Below, piece by piece: positions 97-45,486 of a DNA stretch of 64,000 nucleotides (position 1 is the first letter of the stretch; each line of letters begins with the position of its first letter). Source of the stretch: Actinomycetales bacterium (GTDB lineage Bacteria; Actinomycetota; Actinomycetes; JAJZTN01); the NCBI GenBank assembly GCA_051960855.1, contig JBQCDV010000091.1:56347-120346 (forward strand), in the 5' to 3' direction. The notes under the pieces were generated by a model, which was not told the origin of the DNA, made no database searches, and saw only the letters and a program-made list of their open reading frames with translations. A program made the position numbers and the translations under genes.

Positions 97-1194
97 ATGC
101 CGCGACTACGCCGTTCGGATACGGGGGGTGCCGGGTTCACGCGCCGGCGCGCCGGCAAGGGGTGGACCTACCTCGACCCCGACGGCGCCAAGGTGACCGA
201 TCCAGCTCAGCTGCAGCGTTTCCAGGACCTGGCGATTCCGCCAGCGTGGAAGGACGTCTGGATCTGCCCCTGGCCCAACGGTCACATCCAGGCGCTCGGC
301 ACGGACGCGGCCGGGAGGCGGCAGTACCTGTACCACCCGCAGTGGCGGGCACAACGCGACGCGGCCAAGCACGACCGCGTGCTCGAGGTGGCCGCGTGCC
401 TGCCTCGCGCGCGGGAGCGGGTCGCTGCCGCGCTCGCAAGCGAGGGGCTCACGCGTGAGCGGGTGCTGGCCGCGGCCTTTCGGTTGCTCGACCTTGGCTT
501 CTTCCGCGTTGGCAGCGAGAGCTACGCGGAGGACAACGGCACCTTCGGCCTCGCCACCATGCGCCGCGAGCACGTCACCGTCGACGGCGACGTGGTGGTG
601 TTCGACTACATCGCGAAGCACGGCAAGCAGCGGGTGCAAGCCGTTGTGGACCCCGCGGTCCGGCAGGTCGTGCGGGAGCTGTGCGAGCGCGACGACCCAG
701 CGCCCGAGCTGCTGGCGTGGTGGGACGACGCCCACCAGACGTGGCGCGACGTGAAGAGCAGCGACGTCAACGACTACGTGCGCGAGGCGCTGGGCGTCGA
801 TGCTTCCGCGAAGGACTTCCGCACCTGGCACGCCACGGTGCTGATGGCCGTGGCGCTCGCGGTGTCGACGGAGGTCCCGGCCTCGGTGACCGCGCGCAAG
901 CGGGCGGTGTCGCGAGGCGTCACTGAGGTCTCCTCGTATCTCGGCAACACCGCGGCGGTGTGCCGCAAGTCCTACATCGACCCGCGCGTGATCGACCTGT
1001 ACGACGACGGGATCACCGTGCGGCCCGCGCTGGACCGGCTGGCCGAGGGGCAGAGCTTCGGCGACCCGGCGACTCACGGTGCGATCGAGGCTGCGGTGCT
1101 GCAGATCCTGCGGGAGGACCCGGACGCCGCCGCGCGCAAGAAGGGCACCAGACGCGCGCCCAAAGTGCGCCGTTCGGTCGGGGCGGCCGCCTGA
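97..1194 (+). CDS. DNA topoisomerase IB (poxvirus-type, bacterial TopIB)
   Basis: 365-aa ORF; KDFRTWHAT and CRKSYIDP motifs match the TopIB catalytic Arg/His region and active-site Tyr. Confidence 0.8.
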   Translation: MPRLRRSDTGGAGFTRRRAGKGWTYLDPDGAKVTDPAQLQRFQDLAIPPAWKDVWICPWPNGHIQALGTDAAGRRQYLYHPQWRAQRDAAKHDRVLEVAACLPRARERVAAALASEGLTRERVLAAAFRLLDLGFFRVGSESYAEDNGTFGLATMRREHVTVDGDVVVFDYIAKHGKQRVQAVVDPAVRQVVRELCERDDPAPELLAWWDDAHQTWRDVKSSDVNDYVREALGVDASAKDFRTWHATVLMAVALAVSTEVPASVTARKRAVSRGVTEVSSYLGNTAAVCRKSYIDPRVIDLYDDGITVRPALDRLAEGQSFGDPATHGAIEAAVLQILREDPDAAARKKGTRRAPKVRRSVGAAA

Positions 1195-1260
1195 CGGCAA
1201 CGGCCGGCGCCCTCCTGGGTGCCGGCCGCTGCGGTCGTGCAGGGTCTCTGCCGATGGCTG

Positions 1261-2919
1261 CTAGGCCGTCTTGCTCTCGTGCTCGTTCGGCACGCAGTGG
1301 GTCATCGTGATGCCGGTGACGTCACGCGGCCCGTTCTTGCCGAGGTTGTCCAGCCGCGCGCGCTCCTCATCGGAGAGCGTCTGGTGCGGCAGTGGGGGCA
1401 GGTCACGGACGTCCTCGACGCTGATGCCCAGCCCGTCGCCGACGCGCTGCCCCAGCTCGTCCTCACAGAGGAAGAAGTGCCAGACCATCCGCTCCTGGAT
1501 GCGGCGGTCGCACTGGCTGAGCGCCCCGACGAGGTTGGCGACCAGGTCGTCCTTCTCCCACTGCTCGCTGAGCAGGTAGCGCTCGCCGGCCTGCTTGTAG
1601 TCGTTGGTGCGCGGCAGCGGCTGGCGCGTCAGCCGGCCGGTGATCTGCGGTCCCTGCTCCTCGTGTGCCGGACGCTGCGCCTCCGCGAGGCCGCCGAGGA
1701 TCGACGGCTCGTAGTTAACGTGCGGGTTCTCTCCGCCGTTGTCGACGTAGTAGGCCATCTGTCCGTCGCGCTGGTTGGTGGCGACGGTGGTGCCCTTCGG
1801 CTGGTTGACGGGCAGCTGCAGGTAGTTCGGGCCGACGCGGTAGCGCTGGGTGTCGCTGTAGGAGAAGGTGCGCCCCACCAGCATCTTGTCGTCGGAGAAG
1901 TCGAGACCGTCGACCAGCACGCCGGTGCCGAAGGCGATCTGCTCGTTCTCGGCAAAGAAGTTGCTGACGTTCCGGTCGAGGACCATCCGGCCGACCGGCT
2001 TCGGCGGGAACAGCTCCTCCGGCCACACCTTCGTGTCGTCCAGCGGGTCGAAGTCGAGCTCGGGGTGGTCGTGGTCGTCCATCAGCTGCACGCGCAGCTC
2101 CCAGGCTGGGTAGTCGCCACGCTCGATGGCCTCGTAGAGGTCCTTGGTGTGGTACCCGAGCTCCTGCGCCTGGACAGCGGCGGCGTCAGCGGCGGTCCAG
2201 GAGCGCACCGGCTGCTCCGGGACCCAGTGGTACTTCACGAGCTTCGTCTCGCCCTCGGCATTGACCCACTTGTAGGTGTTGACGCCGAAGCCCTGCTGGT
2301 GTCGGTAGCTGGCCGGGATGCCGCGAGGACTGAAGAGGATCGTGACCATGTGCATGGCCTCGGGGGTCTGGCTGAGGAAGTCGAAGACGCGGTTGGGGTC
2401 CTGCCGGTTGAAGCTGACGGGGTCCGGCTTCTGCGAGTGGATGAGGTCGGGGAACTTGATGGCATCGCGGATAAAGAAGACCGCGAGGTTGTTCCCCACG
2501 AGGTCCCAGTTGCCATCCTCGGTGTAGAACTTCACGGCGAAGCCACGCGGGTCACGCACGGCCTCCGAGGAGTCCCGCCCGCCCGCGACGGTCGAGAAGC
2601 GCACCGCCACCTCGGTCCGCTTGCCCTTGTCCTGGAAGAGCTTCGCGCGCGTGAACTGCGAGATCGGGGCGTCTCCCCACGTGCCATAGGCCTCGAAATA
2701 CCCGAACGCCGTTGTCCCTCGCGCGTGCACGACGCGCTCCGGCACGCGCTCCCGGTCGAAGTGGCTGATCTTCTCGAGGAACTGGTAGTTCTCGAGCGTG
2801 GCAGGTCCCCTGGCTCCGATCGTCCGCTGGTTCTGGTTGTCGTAGACCGGGTGTCCCTGCCGGGTGGTCAGCGTCGTGCGCTGCGTGTCGGCTGGGGTGT
2901 CCTTCTTCGCGTCCGTCAT
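1261..2919 (-). CDS. katA: monofunctional heme catalase
   Basis: 552 aa with typical catalase core ([26 protein letters not shown]-like, [12 protein letters not shown]); ATGA overlap with upstream furA. Confidence 0.95.
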
Positions 2920-3476
2920 GCGGTGGTCTCCCTCTCATGGGTGACTGCTGGTTCGGCTTGGGGTGTGTGGTCTTGGCAGGCGGGGCAGAGGCCCCACCAG
3001 GTGACCTCCGCCTCGACGAGCACGAAGCCCGCCGGTGCCGAGGGGGTCACGCAGGGTGCCTCGCCGACCGCGCAGTCCACGTCGACGGTCAGGCCGCAGG
3101 CGCGGCAGATGACGTGGTGGTGGTTGTCGGCGACGCGGCGCTCGTAGCGGGCGGGTGACCCGGCCGGTTCGATGCGACGGAGCAGACCGGCACCGGTGAG
3201 CGCGTGCAGGCTGTCGTACACCGCCTGCACCGACACCCGGCCCAGTGTCTGCTGCACGTGGTCGACGACCTGGGCCGCCGAGGCATGAGGTGTCGACTCG
3301 AGGGCATCGAGGATGGCGAGCCGCACCGCCGTGACGCGCAGGCCTGCCGCGCGGAGTCCTGCCGCTCGCAGGTCGGCAGCCCGCAGGTCGGCAGCCCGCA
3401 GGTCGGCCGTCGGCCGGTCCGCGCGGGACCGGTCGGGGACCGGTGCTGCTGCCGTCACCGGGGCCTCGACGTTCAT
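2916..3476 (-). CDS. furA: Fur-family transcriptional regulator (FurA-like) with N-terminal DLRAA tandem-repeat extension
   Basis: Fur core with HHHVICxxCG and CPxC metal motifs; GGAGG RBS 8 nt upstream of ATG 3476; co-oriented and overlapping the catalase start. Confidence 0.85.
3336..3412. repeat. degenerate 15-bp tandem repeat (about 5 units, GCAGGTCGGCAGCCC-like) inside the furA 5' coding region
   Basis: Direct reading; encodes [24 protein letters not shown]. Confidence 0.8.
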
Positions 3477-3494
3477 CGCCCACCTCCCCTCTTT

Positions 3495-3509
3495 CTGGAA
3501 CTATTCCAG
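3495..3509. promoter_or_regulatory. perfect 6-3-6 palindrome CTGGAA-CTA-TTCCAG about 20 bp upstream of furA start; candidate Fur operator
   Basis: Seen in the divergent furA / oxidoreductase intergenic region. Confidence 0.4.
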
Positions 3510-3620
3510 TTTTGGTCGCGCGCGCCACCCTAGCGGGCTGGCGTCGGGAGAGGTCAACTCGCAAGGTGACGGGCAGGGTGAGGTCGACAGCACAACGACG
3601 GGCGACATCTCGGAGGCACG

Positions 3621-4496
3621 ATGGGTGAGCGGATCGCCTTTCTCGGCACCGGCATCATGGGAGGGGCCATGGCGCGGCGGCTGGCGGACGCCGGGCAGGA
3701 CATCGCGGTGTGGAACCGCACCCTGGACAAGGCCAGACCGTTGGCCGACGCCGGCGCCACCGTCGCGGCCAGCGTCGCTGACGCCGTTCGCGGTCGCACC
3801 CTGCTGGTCACGATGCTCGCGGATGCCGACGTCACCGCCGCCGCCCTCGGCAACGGGGACGCGCTCGCTGGCCTCGCGCCCGACGCTCTGTGGCTGCAGA
3901 TGGCGACCGTCGGGGTCGCTGGAGAGCAGCGGCTGCGCGGTCTCGCGGAGGCCGCGGGTGTGGGCTACCTGGACGCGCCCGTCTCCGGCACGAAGCAGCC
4001 CGCCGAGCAGGGCGCCCTCACGGTGCTCGCCTCCGGGCCCGAGGACCTTCGCGCCCGCGCCGAGACGGTCTTCTCGGTCGTGGGTTCGACGACCGTGTGG
4101 GCCGGGGAGGCCGGGGCCGGCAGCCGTCTCAAGCTGGTCGTCAACACCTGGCTGCTCGGCCTCCTCGGGGCGCTGGCCGACAGCATCCGGCTCAGTGAGC
4201 TGCTCGGCCTCGACCCTGCCGGCTTCCTGGCTGCCATCGAGGGCGGCCCGCTGTTCACGCCGTACGCGAAGCTCAAGGGTGGCGCAATGATCGCGGGGGA
4301 GTATCCGGCGGCGTTCCCGCTCTCGATGGCGAGCAAGGACGCCCAGCTGGTGGTGGAGGCCGCGCACGACGCCGGCGGCGACCTCCCGGTGGCCGATGCC
4401 CTGGCCGGGCTCTTCCAGCGTGCGGCTGCCCTGGATGGCGGCGAGCTGGGCCGTGCCGACATGGCCGCTGTGGTCGAGGCCCTGCGCCGCGCGTAG
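3621..4496 (+). CDS. NAD(P)-dependent oxidoreductase, 3-hydroxyisobutyrate dehydrogenase / 6PGDH NAD-binding family
   Basis: N-terminal IAFLGTGIMGGAMARRL Rossmann motif; HIBADH-like core. Confidence 0.85.
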   Translation: MGERIAFLGTGIMGGAMARRLADAGQDIAVWNRTLDKARPLADAGATVAASVADAVRGRTLLVTMLADADVTAAALGNGDALAGLAPDALWLQMATVGVAGEQRLRGLAEAAGVGYLDAPVSGTKQPAEQGALTVLASGPEDLRARAETVFSVVGSTTVWAGEAGAGSRLKLVVNTWLLGLLGALADSIRLSELLGLDPAGFLAAIEGGPLFTPYAKLKGGAMIAGEYPAAFPLSMASKDAQLVVEAAHDAGGDLPVADALAGLFQRAAALDGGELGRADMAAVVEALRRA

Positions 4497-5800: not shown

Positions 5801-7216
5801 CTACAGCGGGATGTTGCCGTGCTGCCCGCGCAGCCCCGGCCGGTCGGCCTCGGCGATGGCGCGGGCGATCGCCGAGCGGGTCTGAGTGGGGTCGATGACC
5901 TCGTCGATCACGCCGATCTCGACGGCACGGGGCAGGCCGCCGGCGAGCTTCTCGTGCTCCGCCGCCAGCTCCAGCTCGACCTGCGCGCGCTGCTCGTCCG
6001 GCACTTCCGCCAGCCGGCGTCGGTGCAGGATGCGGATGGCAGCGACCGCTCCCATGACCGCCAGCTCCGCCGTCGGCCACGCGAAGACCTTGGTCGCTCC
6101 GAGAGCGCGGGAGTTCATCGCGATATACGCGCCGCCGTAGGACTTGCGGGTGACGAGGGTGACGCGCGGGACGACGGTCTCGGCGAAGGCGTGCAGCAGC
6201 TTGGCGCCGCGACGGACCACCCCGTCCCACTCCTGCCCGACACCGGGCAGGTAGCCGGGGACGTCGACGATGACGGCCAAGGGGACCCCGAGGGCGTCGC
6301 ACATGCGGACGAAGCGGGCTGCCTTCTCCGCGCTCGAGGAGTCGAGGCAGCCGCCGAGCCGGAGCGGGTTGTTGGCAATGACGCCGATGGTGCGGCCGCC
6401 GAGACGGCCGAGAGCGGTGACGATGTTCGGCGCCCAGCGTGGGTGCAGCTCGAGCGGCTCGTCGTCGAGGAGGGCGGCGACGAGCGGGTGCACGTCGTAG
6501 GCCCGCTTCGCCGACTCGGGCAGGTTCGCCCCCAGGTCGACGTCCTCGACGGAGTCGACGTCGAGCGTGCCCTGGCTGCCCAGCAGCGAGCACAGCCGGC
6601 GCGCCTCGTCGAAGGCCGCGTCGGTGGTCTCGGTGACGACGTGCACGACGCCGCTGCGGCGGCCGTGGGGCTCGGGACCGCCGAGGCGGAGCGCGTCGAC
6701 GTTCTCGCCGGTGACCGACCGGACGACGTCCGGGCCGGTGACGAAGACGCGTCCCTCGGGTCCGAGGATGACGATGTCGGTCAGGGCGGGGCCGTAGGCC
6801 GCTCCTCCCGCGGCGGGGCCGAGCACGACGGAGATCTGCGCGATCTTGCCGGAGGCCCGCGTCATGATGGCGAAGACCTCGCCGACGGCGTGCAGTGACA
6901 CGACGCCCTCAGGGAGCCGGGCGCCGCCGCTGTGCCAGAGCCCCACGATCGGGGTGCCATCTGCGAGGGCGCGCTGGTAGGCGGCGAGGATCACCTTGCA
7001 GCCGTCCACGCCCATCGCGCCGCCCATCACGGTGGCGTCCGAGACGAAGGCCGTGACAGGGGTGCCGTCGACGTGCCCGCGGGCGGCGAGCATGCCGCTG
7101 CGGTCGCGCTCGGTGAGCAGCTCGACCGTGCCGGGGTCGAAGAACCGCTCCAGGCGCAGGACGGGGTCGCGCGGGTCGACCTCGACGGTGAGACCAGGTG
7201 CCGCTGTCGTCGTCAC
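5801..7216 (-). CDS. accD6: acyl-CoA carboxylase carboxyltransferase beta subunit (AccD6-like)
   Basis: 471-aa carboxyl transferase domain protein; GTGA overlap with upstream kasA stop. Confidence 0.9.
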   Translation of the reverse strand: MTTTAAPGLTVEVDPRDPVLRLERFFDPGTVELLTERDRSGMLAARGHVDGTPVTAFVSDATVMGGAMGVDGCKVILAAYQRALADGTPIVGLWHSGGARLPEGVVSLHAVGEVFAIMTRASGKIAQISVVLGPAAGGAAYGPALTDIVILGPEGRVFVTGPDVVRSVTGENVDALRLGGPEPHGRRSGVVHVVTETTDAAFDEARRLCSLLGSQGTLDVDSVEDVDLGANLPESAKRAYDVHPLVAALLDDEPLELHPRWAPNIVTALGRLGGRTIGVIANNPLRLGGCLDSSSAEKAARFVRMCDALGVPLAVIVDVPGYLPGVGQEWDGVVRRGAKLLHAFAETVVPRVTLVTRKSYGGAYIAMNSRALGATKVFAWPTAELAVMGAVAAIRILHRRRLAEVPDEQRAQVELELAAEHEKLAGGLPRAVEIGVIDEVIDPTQTRSAIARAIAEADRPGLRGQHGNIPL

Positions 7217-8484
7217 GAGGCGCTCCGGACAGCGAGGGCGACGTTGTGGCCGCCGAAGCCGAAGGAGTTGTTCAGGGCGAGCAGCTCTCCCTCGGGCAGC
7301 GCCCGCGGCTCCCCTCGCGCCACATCGAGACGAACGTCGTCGTCGGGGTCCTCGAGGTTGGCTGTCGGCGGCACCTGGCGGTGGTAGAGCGCGAGGATCG
7401 TGGCGATGGTCTCGACCGCGCCGGCCGCACCGAGCAGGTGGCCGGTCATGGACTTGGTCGAGGTGACGACGACCTTGTCGGCTGCGTCGCCGAGCGCTTC
7501 ATGGATGGCCGCGGACTCCGCGACGTCGCCGACGGGCGTGGAGGTGGCGTGCGCGTTGATGTGCACGACCTGGTCGGGCGTGGCGCCGGCGTCGGCCAGT
7601 GCCAGCCCCATAGCGCGGGCCGCACCGGCGCCCGTGGGGTCGGGGGCCGCGATGTGATGGGCATCGGAGGTGATGCCCGCCCCGGCGATTACGCCGTACA
7701 CCCGGGCGCCGCGAGCCGTGGCCGACGACAGCCGCTCGAGGACGAGCACGCCCGCGCCCTCGCCGAGGACGAAGCCGTCTCGGCCCTTGTCGTAGGGCCG
7801 CGACGCGCGCTCCGGCTCGTCGTTGCGGGTCGACAGTGCCTGCATCGCGGCGAAGCCCGCGACGGGCAGCGGGTGGATCGCGGCCTCGGTGCCGCCGGCC
7901 AGGACGACGTCGGCGCGGCCGCTGCGGATCATGTCGGCGGCGTAGGCAATCGCCTCGGCGCCGCTGGAGCAGGCGCTGACCGTCGTGTGGGAGCCGGCGC
8001 GGGCCTGGAACTCGATGCTCACCCATGCTGCGGGCGAGTTGGGCATCAGCATCGGCACCGTCATCGGCAGCACCCGTCGCGCGCCGCGCTCCTTGAGCGT
8101 GTCGTAGGCGTCGAGCAGGGTCGTGACCCCACCGATGCCGCTGGCGATCACCACGCCGAGGCGCTCAGGGTCCACCTCGGGTGTGCCCGCGTCCTGCCAC
8201 GCCTCCCGCGCCGCGATCATCGCGAACTGCCCGGCGCGGTCCATGCGCTTGCGCTCGGGGACCGGGAGCACCTCGGCAGGCTCGACGGCGATCGTGCAGG
8301 CGAACTGCACGGGCACCATGTCGACCCAGTCGTAGGTCAGGGGCCGGGCGCCACTGCGGCCCGCGAGCATGGCCTCCCAGGTGGACGGGACATCTCCGCC
8401 GAGCGGGGTCGTCGCGCCGAGCCCGGTGACGACGATCGGGTCGTCAGCTCCGCTGCCGCGGCCGGCAGTCGCGTCGCTGCTCAT
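7213..8484 (-). CDS. fabF: beta-ketoacyl-ACP synthase I/II (KasA/FabF)
   Basis: Active-site Cys (SACSSG) and HINAHATST / NSFGFGGHN motifs. Confidence 0.95.
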   Translation of the reverse strand: MSSDATAGRGSGADDPIVVTGLGATTPLGGDVPSTWEAMLAGRSGARPLTYDWVDMVPVQFACTIAVEPAEVLPVPERKRMDRAGQFAMIAAREAWQDAGTPEVDPERLGVVIASGIGGVTTLLDAYDTLKERGARRVLPMTVPMLMPNSPAAWVSIEFQARAGSHTTVSACSSGAEAIAYAADMIRSGRADVVLAGGTEAAIHPLPVAGFAAMQALSTRNDEPERASRPYDKGRDGFVLGEGAGVLVLERLSSATARGARVYGVIAGAGITSDAHHIAAPDPTGAGAARAMGLALADAGATPDQVVHINAHATSTPVGDVAESAAIHEALGDAADKVVVTSTKSMTGHLLGAAGAVETIATILALYHRQVPPTANLEDPDDDVRLDVARGEPRALPEGELLALNNSFGFGGHNVALAVRSAS

Positions 8485-8643
8485 GTCTGGCCTTCCTGGA
8501 TCGGAAAATCGGTGGCCGGTTGATCGGTAAATCGGTGGGCCGGTTGTTCGGTGGGCCGCTTGTTCGGTTGGCCGGTGGCCGCTTGTTCGGGGACGCCGCA
8601 GCCGGGGCGAGACGCTCGCCCCCGCTACGTCGTTCGGGACGTA

Positions 8644-8892
8644 CTAGCTCTGGGCGCGCTGGATGAAGGCGACGGCGTCGCCGACGGTGCGCAGGTTCTT
8701 GACCTCGTCGTCCGGGATCTTCACGCCGAACTTGTCCTCGGCGTTGACGACGATCGTCATCATCGACAGCGAGTCGATGTCGAGGTCGTCGGTGAAGGAC
8801 TTGTCGGGCTGGACGTCCGAGGCGGGGATGCCGGTCTCTTCGTTGACGATCTCGGCGAGGCCGTCAAGGATGTCCTGCTCGGTGCTGGCCAT
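8644..8892 (-). CDS. acpP: acyl carrier protein
   Basis: 82 aa; DLDIDSLSM phosphopantetheine attachment motif. Confidence 0.95.
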   Translation of the reverse strand: MASTEQDILDGLAEIVNEETGIPASDVQPDKSFTDDLDIDSLSMMTIVVNAEDKFGVKIPDDEVKNLRTVGDAVAFIQRAQS

Positions 8893-8959
8893 AGGGTCTG
8901 CTCCTCCTGTTGTGTGGGGTCGAAGGTCGGTCGGATGTCACGGCGGGAGCGCCGCGCGG

Positions 8960-9973
8960 TCAGGGTAGGCGCACCACCTGGGCGGCGAACACCAGCCCGG
9001 CGCCGAAGCCGATCAGGAGGGCGAGGTCGCCGCTCTTGGCCTCGCCCGCCTCGAGCATCCGCTCCATGGCGAGCGGAATCGAGGCAGCCGAGGTGTTGCC
9101 CTGGTCGGCGATGTCGCGGGCGACGGGCACGTCAGCGGGCAGCTTGAGTGCCTTGATCATCGCGTCGGTGATGCGCATGTTGGCCTGGTGGGGGATGAAG
9201 GCGTCGAGGTCGGAGGCTTCGATGCCGGCGGCGTCCAGCGCCTGCTGGGCGACCTTGGCCATCTCCCACACTGCCCACCGGAAAACCGTCTGGCCCTGCA
9301 TCGTCAGGGGAATCCACTCGGTGCGGCCCTCGCGGACGTCGATCCACGTGCCGGTGTGGTTGATCGCCTCGTACTTCGAGCCGTCCGAGCCCCACACGGT
9401 CGGGCCGATGGCGGGGGTGTCGCTCGGGCCGACCACGACAGCGCCCGCGCCGTCGCCGAAGAGGAACGCCGTCGAGCGGTCGTGCTTGTCGGTGAAGTCG
9501 GAGAGCTTCTCGCACCCCACCACGACGACGTACTGCGCCGACCCGCCCCGCACCATGTCATGGGCGAGGGAGACGCCGTAGCAGAAGCCGGCGCAGGCCG
9601 CGGAGATGTCGAAGGCGGGCACACCGTGGGCGCCGAGGCGCTCGGCGAGCAGGGCGGCGCCGCTGGGCGTCTGCAGCGGGTGGGTCACGGTGGCGAGCAG
9701 GACCGCACCGACCTGCTCCGGGGAGATCCCGGCCTGGGCCAGCGCCTTGCCGGCAGCCGCCGTGGCCATGTCCACGACGGTCTCGTCCTCGGCGGCCCAA
9801 CGCCGCGTGACGATCCCCGAACGCTCCCGGATCCACTCATCGGAGGAGTCGATGTACTGGCAGATCTCCTCGTTGGTCACCACGCGGGACGGGCGGTAGC
9901 CGCCCACTCCGAGGATGCGGGCGTGGCGGGCGCCGGCAGGGACGGCGAGCTCGACGGTGCGGTCGCTGGGCAT
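8960..9973 (-). CDS. fabH: beta-ketoacyl-ACP synthase III
   Basis: FabH fold; AACAGF active-site Cys, HQAN and GFGAG motifs. Confidence 0.95.
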   Translation of the reverse strand: MPSDRTVELAVPAGARHARILGVGGYRPSRVVTNEEICQYIDSSDEWIRERSGIVTRRWAAEDETVVDMATAAAGKALAQAGISPEQVGAVLLATVTHPLQTPSGAALLAERLGAHGVPAFDISAACAGFCYGVSLAHDMVRGGSAQYVVVVGCEKLSDFTDKHDRSTAFLFGDGAGAVVVGPSDTPAIGPTVWGSDGSKYEAINHTGTWIDVREGRTEWIPLTMQGQTVFRWAVWEMAKVAQQALDAAGIEASDLDAFIPHQANMRITDAMIKALKLPADVPVARDIADQGNTSAASIPLAMERMLEAGEAKSGDLALLIGFGAGLVFAAQVVRLP

Positions 9974-15704: not shown

Positions 15705-16811
15705 CTACGCCGTTCGGTGATGGGCGATGCTCTCGTGCTCGGCTCCGGCTGGCTCGGCGTGCACGACCGCCGATGACAGCCGCCGGACCTCGTGCAGCAG
15801 CTGGTGCTCCGCCTCGTGGGCCAGGTCGTGCCCCTGCGCCACGGACAGCGAGGCATCGACGACGATCTCGCACTCGGCGAGCAGCGAGTGCCCGATCCAC
15901 CGCAGGCGCACCAATCCGACGTCGAGCACGCCGGGCGTGGCCCGCAGCGTGGACTCGACGAGGTCAACGAGGGCAGGGTCCACCGCATCCATGAGGCGCC
16001 GGTAGACATCCCGGACGGCGCCGCGCAGGACGGCGAGGATCGCCACCGTGATGAGCAGCCCCACCAGCGGGTCCGCCCAGCGCCAGCCCACCGCGACCCC
16101 GGCAGCGCCGACGACGACGGCCAGTGACGTGAACCCGTCGGTGCGAGCGTGCAGCCCGTCGGCGACCAGCGCCGCGGATCCGATCTCGCGGCCGACCGCG
16201 ATCCGGTAGCGCGCGACGACCTCGTTGCCGAGGAAGCCGACGACGCCCGCGGCCGCCACCGCCCAAAGCGCGGACACCTCGCTGGGGTGGCGCAGCCGGT
16301 CCACCGACTCCCACGCGGCGATGACGGCTGACACCGCGATGACCACGACGATGGCCAGCCCGGCCAGGTCCTCGGCCCGTCCGTAGCCGTAGGTGTAGCG
16401 GCGCGTCGGCTGGCGCCGACCGATCCAGAAGGCGATGCCGAGCGGCACTGCCGTCAGAGCGTCGCCGAGGTTGTGCAGCGTGTCGGACAGCAGCGCCACC
16501 GAGCCGGAGAACGCCACGACGACGGCCTGCACCACGGCGGTGAGCGCGAGACCGGCCAGCGACACCCACAGCGCCCGCAGCCCGCGCGAGCTGGCTTCGA
16601 GCTCGGCGTCGACGGAGTCGGACGGGTCATGGCTGTGCGGGGCGACGAGCTCGCGCAGCCAACCCAGCGCCCCACCGTGCCCGTGGCCGTGTTCTTCGTG
16701 GCCGTGCTCTTCGTGGCCGTGCGCCTCGTGCCCGTGCGCCTCGTGCCCGTGCTCCTCGTGCCCGTGCTCCTCGTGCGCGTGCTCCTCGTGCGCGTGCTCA
16801 CCGACCGCCAT
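15705..16811 (-). CDS. cation diffusion facilitator (CzcD-like) metal efflux transporter with His-rich N-terminal repeat
   Basis: CDF TM core plus C-terminal domain; N-terminus HAHEEHAHEEHGHEEHGHEAHGHEAHGHEEHGHEEHGHGHGG. Confidence 0.9.
   Translation of the reverse strand: MAVGEHAHEEHAHEEHGHEEHGHEAHGHEAHGHEEHGHEEHGHGHGGALGWLRELVAPHSHDPSDSVDAELEASSRGLRALWVSLAGLALTAVVQAVVVAFSGSVALLSDTLHNLGDALTAVPLGIAFWIGRRQPTRRYTYGYGRAEDLAGLAIVVVIAVSAVIAAWESVDRLRHPSEVSALWAVAAAGVVGFLGNEVVARYRIAVGREIGSAALVADGLHARTDGFTSLAVVVGAAGVAVGWRWADPLVGLLITVAILAVLRGAVRDVYRRLMDAVDPALVDLVESTLRATPGVLDVGLVRLRWIGHSLLAECEIVVDASLSVAQGHDLAHEAEHQLLHEVRRLSSAVVHAEPAGAEHESIAHHRTA
16687..16806. repeat. 8 tandem 15-bp units (GTGGCCGTGCTCTTC-like) encoding the HEEHG repeat of the CDF transporter
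   Basis: Direct reading. Confidence 0.85.
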
Positions 16812-45370: not shown

Positions 45371-45416
45371 GAGGGTCCATGGTGACGGACGGCGCCGGTC
45401 CTGACGAGCGATTTCC

Positions 45417-45486
45417 GAACGGCGCTGCCCCTCCCTAACGGCGCTGCCCCTCCCGAACGGCGCTGCCCCTCCCGAACGGCGCTGCC
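45417..45486. repeat. intergenic tandem repeat, 19-bp unit GAACGGCGCTGCCCCTCCC, about 3.7 copies
   Basis: Direct reading. Confidence 0.85.

Follow-up and report, generated by a model that had tools for sequence, protein, structure and literature searches.

An in-frame, length-polymorphic pentapeptide expansion at the start of a FurA-type repressor encoded with a monofunctional catalase

The window analysed here is a 64,000-nucleotide stretch of contig JBQCDV010000091.1 (positions 56,347 to 120,346, forward strand) in the assembly GCA_051960855.1 of an Actinomycetales bacterium, and the element in question is a tandem array of 15-bp units inside the gene for a Fur-family repressor, which stands before a heme catalase gene and overlaps it. 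The array places three ADLRA pentapeptides directly in front of the motif LRxAGLRVT, with which the conserved Fur core begins, and a sibling strain carries four. We consider it probable, taking both parts together as one reading, that the locus is a two-gene peroxide-defence operon of the known FurA/PerR type and that its repressor bears a tolerated, near-neutral extension of variable length. What is new is the pentapeptide expansion of the first helix, α1, and its length polymorphism; the surrounding system is already known, and in its operon, operator and coupling it would be one more member of textbook FurA/PerR biology. The parts of the repressor gene are these:

2916–3476, minus strand: FurA/PerR-type Fur-family repressor gene, 186 aa (open reading frame, Pfam and structure match)
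3408–3476, minus strand: codons 1–23, a Pro/Ala/Arg-rich, non-repetitive leader, predicted to be mostly coil (AlphaFold2 (AF2) model, sibling comparison)
3363–3407, minus strand: codons 24–38, three extra lineage-specific ADLRA units of polymorphic copy number (Tandem Repeats Finder, alignments)
3333–3362, minus strand: codons 39–48, AGLRA and AGLRV, the canonical α1 motif LRxAGLRVT and seed of the repeat (alignments)
3483–3487, minus strand: Shine-Dalgarno sequence GGAGG (6 nt ahead of the ATG; shared unchanged by all siblings)

Tandem Repeats Finder describes the array as 4.7 copies of a 15-bp period at 3337–3407 (83% match), of which 2.7 copies at 3367–3407 are perfect. An earlier note on this DNA, made from the letters alone, had taken about 47 residues before the Fur core to consist of five repeats; the five units together amount to 25 aa (residues 24–48), and residues 1–23 are not repetitive. 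Nor do the last two units, which the same note had counted with the extension, belong to it. In alignments of 20 and then 117 homologues the conserved core starts at L41, with L41, R42, G45, R47 and T49 invariant or nearly so, and units 4 and 5 (residues 39–48) are the ordinary end of α1 and its junction to α2; the extra part is ADLRA three times over, or 15 aa. Units 1 and 2 are identical in DNA (GCC GAC CTG CGG GCT), unit 3 has two differences and units 4 and 5 use other codons, a pattern that points to an older duplication followed by recent ones. The motif LRxAGLRVT already reads as two units of five residues, and tandem duplication, by replication slippage on perfect 15-bp repeats, would have given the three extra ADLRA units of the window and the four of one sibling. 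The array is a clean natural case of a conserved motif seeding an in-frame tandem expansion within a DNA-binding domain.

The expansion is specific to this lineage. Of 160 other loci, drawn from genomes and metagenomes, 153 carry precisely two Leu-Arg units in pentad phase before the motif, and not one of the 160 has a third. No close relative is present in the genome collection, where the best match has 69% identity; a protein-guided search of the JGI metagenomes returned relatives at 68% identity or less, all lacking the expansion, and an exact DNA search of those metagenomes with the invariant 22-mer of box plus leader gave no match. The α1 pentapeptide expansion and its polymorphism are likewise absent among the best 120 matches listed by a protein search over 8,000 scored candidates, and a full-text literature search found neither. 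When residues 20–73 were compared with 1.84 billion representatives, pentapeptide-repeat proteins and low-complexity proteins rich in A, D, L and R swamped the matches, so that this search was uninformative about Fur proteins.

The suggestion that a 15-bp unit could slip in frame and vary the length of the extension was borne out when strains were compared. The cluster of the repressor at 90% identity has five members, one in the window and four on sibling contigs that share its gene order and are 98.5–99.1% identical to it in DNA. Three of the sibling contigs have the copy number of the window, one of them with a unit in which Ala is replaced by Ser. The fourth, L081 (GCA_051960235.1, JBQCEM010000072.1; 99.1% identical), has one more perfect 15-bp unit inserted at 3367, giving four ADLRA, and these 15 bp are the sole indel between L081 and the window over 6.37 kb. 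In-frame slippage is thereby confirmed to occur in nature, with only two alleles seen, and a length polymorphism has been caught among 99%-identical strains. In this respect the array resembles a contingency locus, with three or four extra units at 99.1% DNA identity; it lacks the switch of such a locus, as the 15-bp unit always keeps the frame and makes on/off switching impossible. An assembly artefact was rejected as the origin of the array, which is present in five independent assemblies.

Multi-base indels in the sibling population are confined to tandem arrays. A second one lies in the intergenic region between the repressor gene and a divergent dehydrogenase gene (3621–4496), where a tandem unit of 11–12 nt (TGCCCGTCACC, minus strand) at 3561–3580 is also polymorphic in length: L082 has gained 23 bp, or two extra units, at about 3561–3580, its sole large indel, and L084 has an apparent partial extra unit at the edge of its contig.

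Constraint differs sharply between the two parts of the repressor. Codons 1–40 hold six non-synonymous differences among the five sequences (A5V, R16G, R18G, P22S, T23A and A29S) and two synonymous ones (at V7 and P14), of which five and two, respectively, fall in the leader, codons 1–23; the 146 core codons hold none and five (Fisher p ~0.016 for the split between N-terminus and core). The N-terminal extension is evolving under relaxed constraint, almost freely. Most likely it is a tolerated, near-neutral appendage of polymorphic length and contains no required functional module, although its neutrality is something that we infer.

The strongest alternative is that the repeat is an adaptive tuning device, changes in length altering affinity for the operator, the way dimers pack on DNA or the stability of the protein. 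Each slippage step would add or remove five residues of α1, equivalent to about 7.5 Å and 140 degrees, and the population would come to contain subpopulations with differing basal catalase, a contingency locus at the level of protein. Several facts invite such a view: copy number differs among 99%-identical strains as the sole indel in 6.4 kb, the array sits in the first helix of the DNA-binding domain and is fused directly to invariant residues, and the perfect DNA copies imply recent events. Against it, the five sequences show two alleles only, in a 4:1 ratio, a tract of three or four 15-bp units is short for high-rate slippage, and the N-terminal region is under relaxed constraint. The genome also holds many similar short arrays, including the variable intergenic one 60 bp away. 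The window alone has about 15–18 comparable tandem arrays (22 rows of Tandem Repeats Finder output, some overlapping), so the ADLRA array is real, yet statistically unexceptional there. With so many arrays of this kind, one of them nearby and also varying, a general mutational tendency is indicated rather than selection, and a tuning role for repeat length is possible but unlikely. The more specific proposal that the α1 extension is a selected, slippage-driven rheostat, in which five-residue steps alter operator occupancy or higher-order assembly on DNA, we hold to be doubtful; if true, it would diversify basal catalase within a population through the structure of a transcription factor instead of frameshift on/off switching. 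Should length affect repression, it would be an unusual route to diversify readiness for oxidative stress; should it have no effect, the polymorphism would indicate the extent of N-terminal variation that a Fur fold can tolerate.

That the repeat belongs to the protein at all, as the earlier note predicted, can be argued by exclusion from the distribution of start codons. The in-frame candidates are ATG1, GTG7, CTG26, CTG31, CTG36, CTG46 and GTG51, with no canonical start between these two GTG codons, 7 and 51. The sole sibling variation in residues 41–49 is a synonymous single-nucleotide polymorphism at 3330, and this conservation of codons 41–49 means that translation begins upstream of codon 41. 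ATG1 and GTG7 are the only canonical starts before the invariant L41–T49, and both lie upstream of the repeats, so the repeat must be translated if a canonical start is used. It is improbable, in our judgement, that the array is instead 5′-leader DNA or RNA and that ribosomes initiate further inside the frame, at a non-canonical codon like the CTG for Leu36. That codon is where PGAP starts the L081 protein (P0121), the ratio of non-synonymous to synonymous differences in codons 1–40 is high among the siblings, and the N-termini of most homologues are much shorter. ATG1, on the other hand, has GGAGG 6 nt upstream in all five sequences and is used in four of the five annotations, while every one of the CTG codons lacks a purine-rich Shine-Dalgarno sequence; the GC content at third codon positions is 0.87 in codons 1–23, which is coding-like, and homologues with leaderless promoters start at the position equivalent to ATG1. 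A start at CTG36 would still keep Leu-Arg-Ala, the last three residues of the third ADLRA. The four-unit allele of L081 (3001–3456) is annotated as 151 aa from the CTG, with an in-frame ATG and GGAGG 40 codons upstream, and we draw attention to the fact that one gene has been given two starts in sibling genomes, four being annotated from the ATG and one from a CTG within the gene.

An AF2 model of the translated protein, built on a 118-sequence alignment (mean pLDDT 81.5), has residues 1–20 as coil (pLDDT ~64) and residues 21–43 as one continuous helix, with pLDDT rising from 78 to 98, followed by a standard Fur/PerR fold. On this model the extension most likely lengthens α1 to a helix of about 23 residues, adding about four turns. 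A coiled coil was dropped as a description of the extension on inspection, as a leucine periodicity of five residues fits neither heptads nor hendecads. The periodicity does recall pentapeptide repeat proteins (PF00805), among them MfpA and Qnr: ADLRA fits their consensus A(D/N)LXX, the spacing of Ala and Leu every five residues suits their right-handed β-helix, and the search with residues 20–73 returned such proteins among the 12 matches inspected, some with the identical string. That the ADLRA units form or seed such a β-helix, as a new structural module of the repressor, is nevertheless very improbable. PF00805 scores 13.2 bits with the window allele and 19.3 bits with the six-unit L081 allele, both below the Pfam cut-off of 20.2, and five to six units amount to about 1.25–1.5 coils, compared with eight units in the family model and eight or more expected of a member. 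The last two units are the Fur α1 motif, a helix in the solved structures of Fur and PerR, the AF2 model has the segment as one helix continuous with α1, and we regard the likeness as a trivial by-product of duplicating AxLRA. It does, however, weaken confidence in an all-helical model.

Beyond the extension the protein is what the earlier note took it to be, a FurA/PerR-like regulator, as its sequence and model both support. It is identical to the NCBI protein P0001 from a metagenome-assembled genome, and residues 44–134 match PF01475 (FUR) with 70 bits (Pfam gathering cut-off 23.1). The best Foldseek matches of the model are PerR, Fur, Zur and Nur, each at a probability of 1.00, and the model comprises a winged-helix DNA-binding domain and a dimerisation and metal-binding domain. 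In an alignment with PerR, whose sequence was checked to be identical to PDB 2fe3, the regulatory ligands H37, D85, H91, H93 and D104 correspond to H64, E112 (Asp to Glu), H119, H121 and D132, which are invariant across 118 homologues, and C96, C99, C136 and C139 of the structural Zn(Cys)4 site correspond to C124, C127, C164 and C167. The protein is not a member of the NCBIfam PerR equivalogs, scoring 67.7 against 200 for NF047406 and 55.1 against 180 for NF052545. By analogy with its relatives, the repressor would sense peroxide.

The remaining features of the proposed operon are the following:

3552–3557, minus strand: candidate −35 element TTGACC (read from the sequence; invariant in five sibling sequences)
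3527–3532, minus strand: candidate −10 element TAGGGT, of the TANNNT type (read from the sequence; invariant in siblings)
3494–3510, unstranded: FurA-box-like operator ACTGGAAT-A-GTTCCAGA, whose core at 3495–3509 is a perfect 6-3-6 palindrome
2916–2919, minus strand: ATGA stop/start overlap of the repressor and catalase genes (read from the sequence)
1261–2919, minus strand: monofunctional heme catalase gene, 552 aa (PF00199 and PF06628)
1193–1236, minus strand: strong GC-rich hairpin after the catalase stop, a probable operon terminator

The Fur reading frame, the 15-bp repeat, the strong ribosome-binding site, the ATGA overlap and the palindrome, all of which had been noted before, are present in the list of open reading frames, the Tandem Repeats Finder output or the sequence itself. 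The palindrome, CTGGAA-N3-TTCCAG, ends 18 nt from the ATG and occurs once in the 64 kb; 100 shuffles yielded no copy (0.00 expected). The published mycobacterial FurA box, which we take here and below from secondary sources, is TCTGGAAT-N-ATTCCAGA or TCTTGACT-N-ATTCCAGA (PMC4218801), and a mycobacterial FurA motif is given as T[CT]TTGACT[CG][AG]TTCCA[GA]A[AT]AA (PMC4319475). Compared with the pattern TCT[TG]GA[CA]T-N-ATTCCAGA expected at the repressor's own promoter, ACTGGAATAGTTCCAGA at 3494–3510 has two mismatches in 17 positions and is unique in the window, which places it among FurA boxes. Most of the genome loci in our comparison set, 80 loci of the closest FurA-type homologues, have a site of the class CTTGAC/CTGGAA-N3-TTCCAG-aaa ahead of fur, and the perfect CTGGAA-N3-TTCCAG recurs in Isoptericola (L005) and in L043. 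The palindrome that the earlier note proposed as an autoregulatory operator is, judged by its sequence, a candidate FurA box of a known operator class. It hardly deserves consideration that the palindrome acts instead as an RNA hairpin, a terminator or attenuator, for although a scan for terminators picks out CTGGAACTATTCCAG with TTTTGG after it on the plus strand, that strand has no gene ending upstream of the site, its stem has six pairs, three of them GC, the whole leader folds no better than shuffled sequence (z = −0.82), and the site matches a known protein-binding box whose DNA is conserved across genera; we rejected it.

In the homologues the shared layout is tttCTTGAC-N3-TTCCAGaaaa, a TANNNT hexamer and a start codon 6–7 nt later, so that the left half-site doubles as the −35 element and the transcript starts at the start codon, and the 5′ end of M. 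tuberculosis furA coincides with the initiation codon (PMC2358910). In the window the −10 position of this layout reads AGGTGG, GGAGG precedes the ATG and TTGACC and TAGGGT lie further upstream, separated by 19 nt, and together these features lead us to propose a leadered transcript. It would start near 3519–3521 and carry the box in its 5′ leader, roughly from +10 to +27, an arrangement like that of M. smegmatis ahpC (PMC4218801). This proposal draws on reading of the sequence and comparison of homologues, the promoter scan having used a strict E. coli consensus.

Downstream, the repressor stop TGA (2918–2916) shares bases with the catalase ATG (2919–2917) in a 4-bp ATGA. The catalase reading frame matches PF00199 with 561 bits and PF06628 with 66 bits and has no peroxidase domain, and its best relative in the PDB is 4cab (E = 6e-212); it is a monofunctional heme catalase, in agreement with the earlier assignment. 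Its closest counterpart among the genome loci compared is the fur-linked catalase of Motilibacter deserti (L015), at 75.6% identity. The hairpin at 1193–1236 has a minimum free energy of −44.4 kcal/mol (z = −4.8), and none of 200 shuffles was equally stable. It overlaps the stop codon of a bacterial type IB topoisomerase gene (PF21338 and PF01028; 97–1194, plus strand), convergent with the catalase gene, and could serve as terminator for both transcripts.

The order of elements is then candidate promoter, FurA box, Shine-Dalgarno sequence, FurA/PerR repressor gene, ATGA, heme catalase gene and hairpin terminator. On the model of M. tuberculosis FurA and B. subtilis PerR, a metal-loaded repressor dimer would bind the box and repress its own operon, and H2O2 would inactivate the repressor, releasing it from the DNA and derepressing regulator and catalase in an autoregulated fashion. 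The ATGA overlap would couple the translation of the two genes.

Several points weigh against the reading that we favour, that of a FurA-type operon whose translated, helical extension is near-neutral. Its neutrality is argued from just five sequences, and the relaxed constraint on the leader would fit non-translation equally well; the start that PGAP gives the L081 allele skips most of the repeats. Spaced every five residues, Leu and Ala do not give an amphipathic α-helix and resemble pentapeptide-repeat units, which makes the helix at residues 24–38 insecure. At the promoter, a strict σ70 scan found none, the candidate spacer is long at 19 nt, and the AGGTGG found where homologues have TANNNT leaves the placement uncertain.

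The earlier note saw in the KatA-type catalase an unusual stand-in for the partner of the furA-katG pair, and this does not hold. Of the 80 loci, 45 have KatG downstream of fur, 26 a monofunctional catalase, eight another gene and one no room. The KatG calls are proteins of about 740 aa, three of which were checked and have two peroxidase domains each, the rest having been assigned by tblastn. KatG or catalase follows directly in 71 of 80 loci, the neighbourhood of a FurA regulon, to which the window conforms with its 4-bp overlap; the identical overlap is found in seven catalase loci (L002, L006, L015, L018, L063, L065 and L067), and an 8-bp overlap in three others. The pairing of fur with a monofunctional catalase is ordinary, because 26 of the 79 loci with room have it and because control of a catalase by CatR is known. 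Another partner is seen in L008, where the FurA-type gene is followed by a gene with an MpaB/Lcp-type oxygenase domain (PF09995) in place of catalase or KatG; L038, L042 and L044 have downstream reading frames of similar length (284–321 aa). These four loci belong to Dactylosporangium, Actinoplanes and Micromonospora, and the PF09995-type gene may be a different FurA-controlled partner in the Micromonosporaceae.

Among known systems the closest is FurA of M. tuberculosis and M. smegmatis, which belongs to the same Fur subgroup (the window protein has 59–64% identity to katG-linked homologues such as that of Mycobacterium fragae, L049) and shares the DNHHH and CxxC motifs, the order of regulator first and peroxide-detoxifying enzyme second, and the operator type TCTTGACT-N-ATTCCAGA (PMC4218801; PMC4319475). 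The window differs from it in having a monofunctional heme catalase in place of KatG, genes that overlap by 4 bp and three to four extra pentapeptide units in α1. Its box is a perfect CTGGAA/TTCCAG palindrome and does not also serve as a −35 element TTGACT, and it has an apparent leader with a Shine-Dalgarno sequence where the 5′ end of M. tuberculosis furA is the start codon (PMC2358910). The IR2 site of M. smegmatis ahpC (TCTGGAAT-C-ATTCCAGA) is likewise a perfect inverted repeat, with two mismatches in 17 to the box of the window; its target is ahpC rather than a fur-catalase operon, and binding of FurA to IR2 is inferred, not directly shown, in the source paper (PMC4218801). B. subtilis PerR (2fe3/3f8n) is the top structural match, with all five regulatory ligands and the Zn(Cys)4 site aligned; it has 27% identity and no repeat expansion. 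To judge from their locus numbers, catR and catA of S. coelicolor probably do not form an overlapping operon. Streptomyces coelicolor CatR (SCO5206) is, like the window protein, a Fur-family regulator linked to a monofunctional catalase, being a redox-responsive repressor of CatA (PMC2464607, citing Hahn et al. 2000); Santos et al. place it in actinobacterial Fur group D, whereas the window protein groups with the FurA type of group A (PMC2464607).

Tandem duplications of other kinds were met in and around fur genes elsewhere. P0002, on an ENA contig of 858 bp, is a Fur homologue of 188 aa with an internal tandem duplication of about 45 aa over the metal-binding segment DNHHH...CxxC...DVDC, which is either real or the product of a chimeric assembly. 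Rarobacter faecitabidus (L025) has a three-copy tandem repeat of about 33 nt, some 150–250 nt upstream of fur and upstream of its promoter, which reads PALPGRRWAPR three times in one frame.

Three further arrays of the window may be mentioned. At 16682–16799, in the open reading frame 15705–16811 (minus strand), a 15-bp repeat of 7.9 copies (94% match) specifies an N-terminus rich in His and Glu (HEEHGHEEHGHEAHG...); judged by eye, the product resembles a membrane protein of the cation-diffusion-facilitator type, and the array is a second in-frame five-residue repeat of this genome. A 19-bp repeat of 3.8 copies (96% match; CCGAACGGCGCTGCCCCTC) at 45415–45486 lies in an apparently intergenic gap, the reading frames on either side ending near 45385 and 45490. 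At 8499–8598, where the plus-strand reading frames 7198–8523 and 8551–9147 adjoin, tandem repeats of 16 bp and 23 bp overlap in a cluster.

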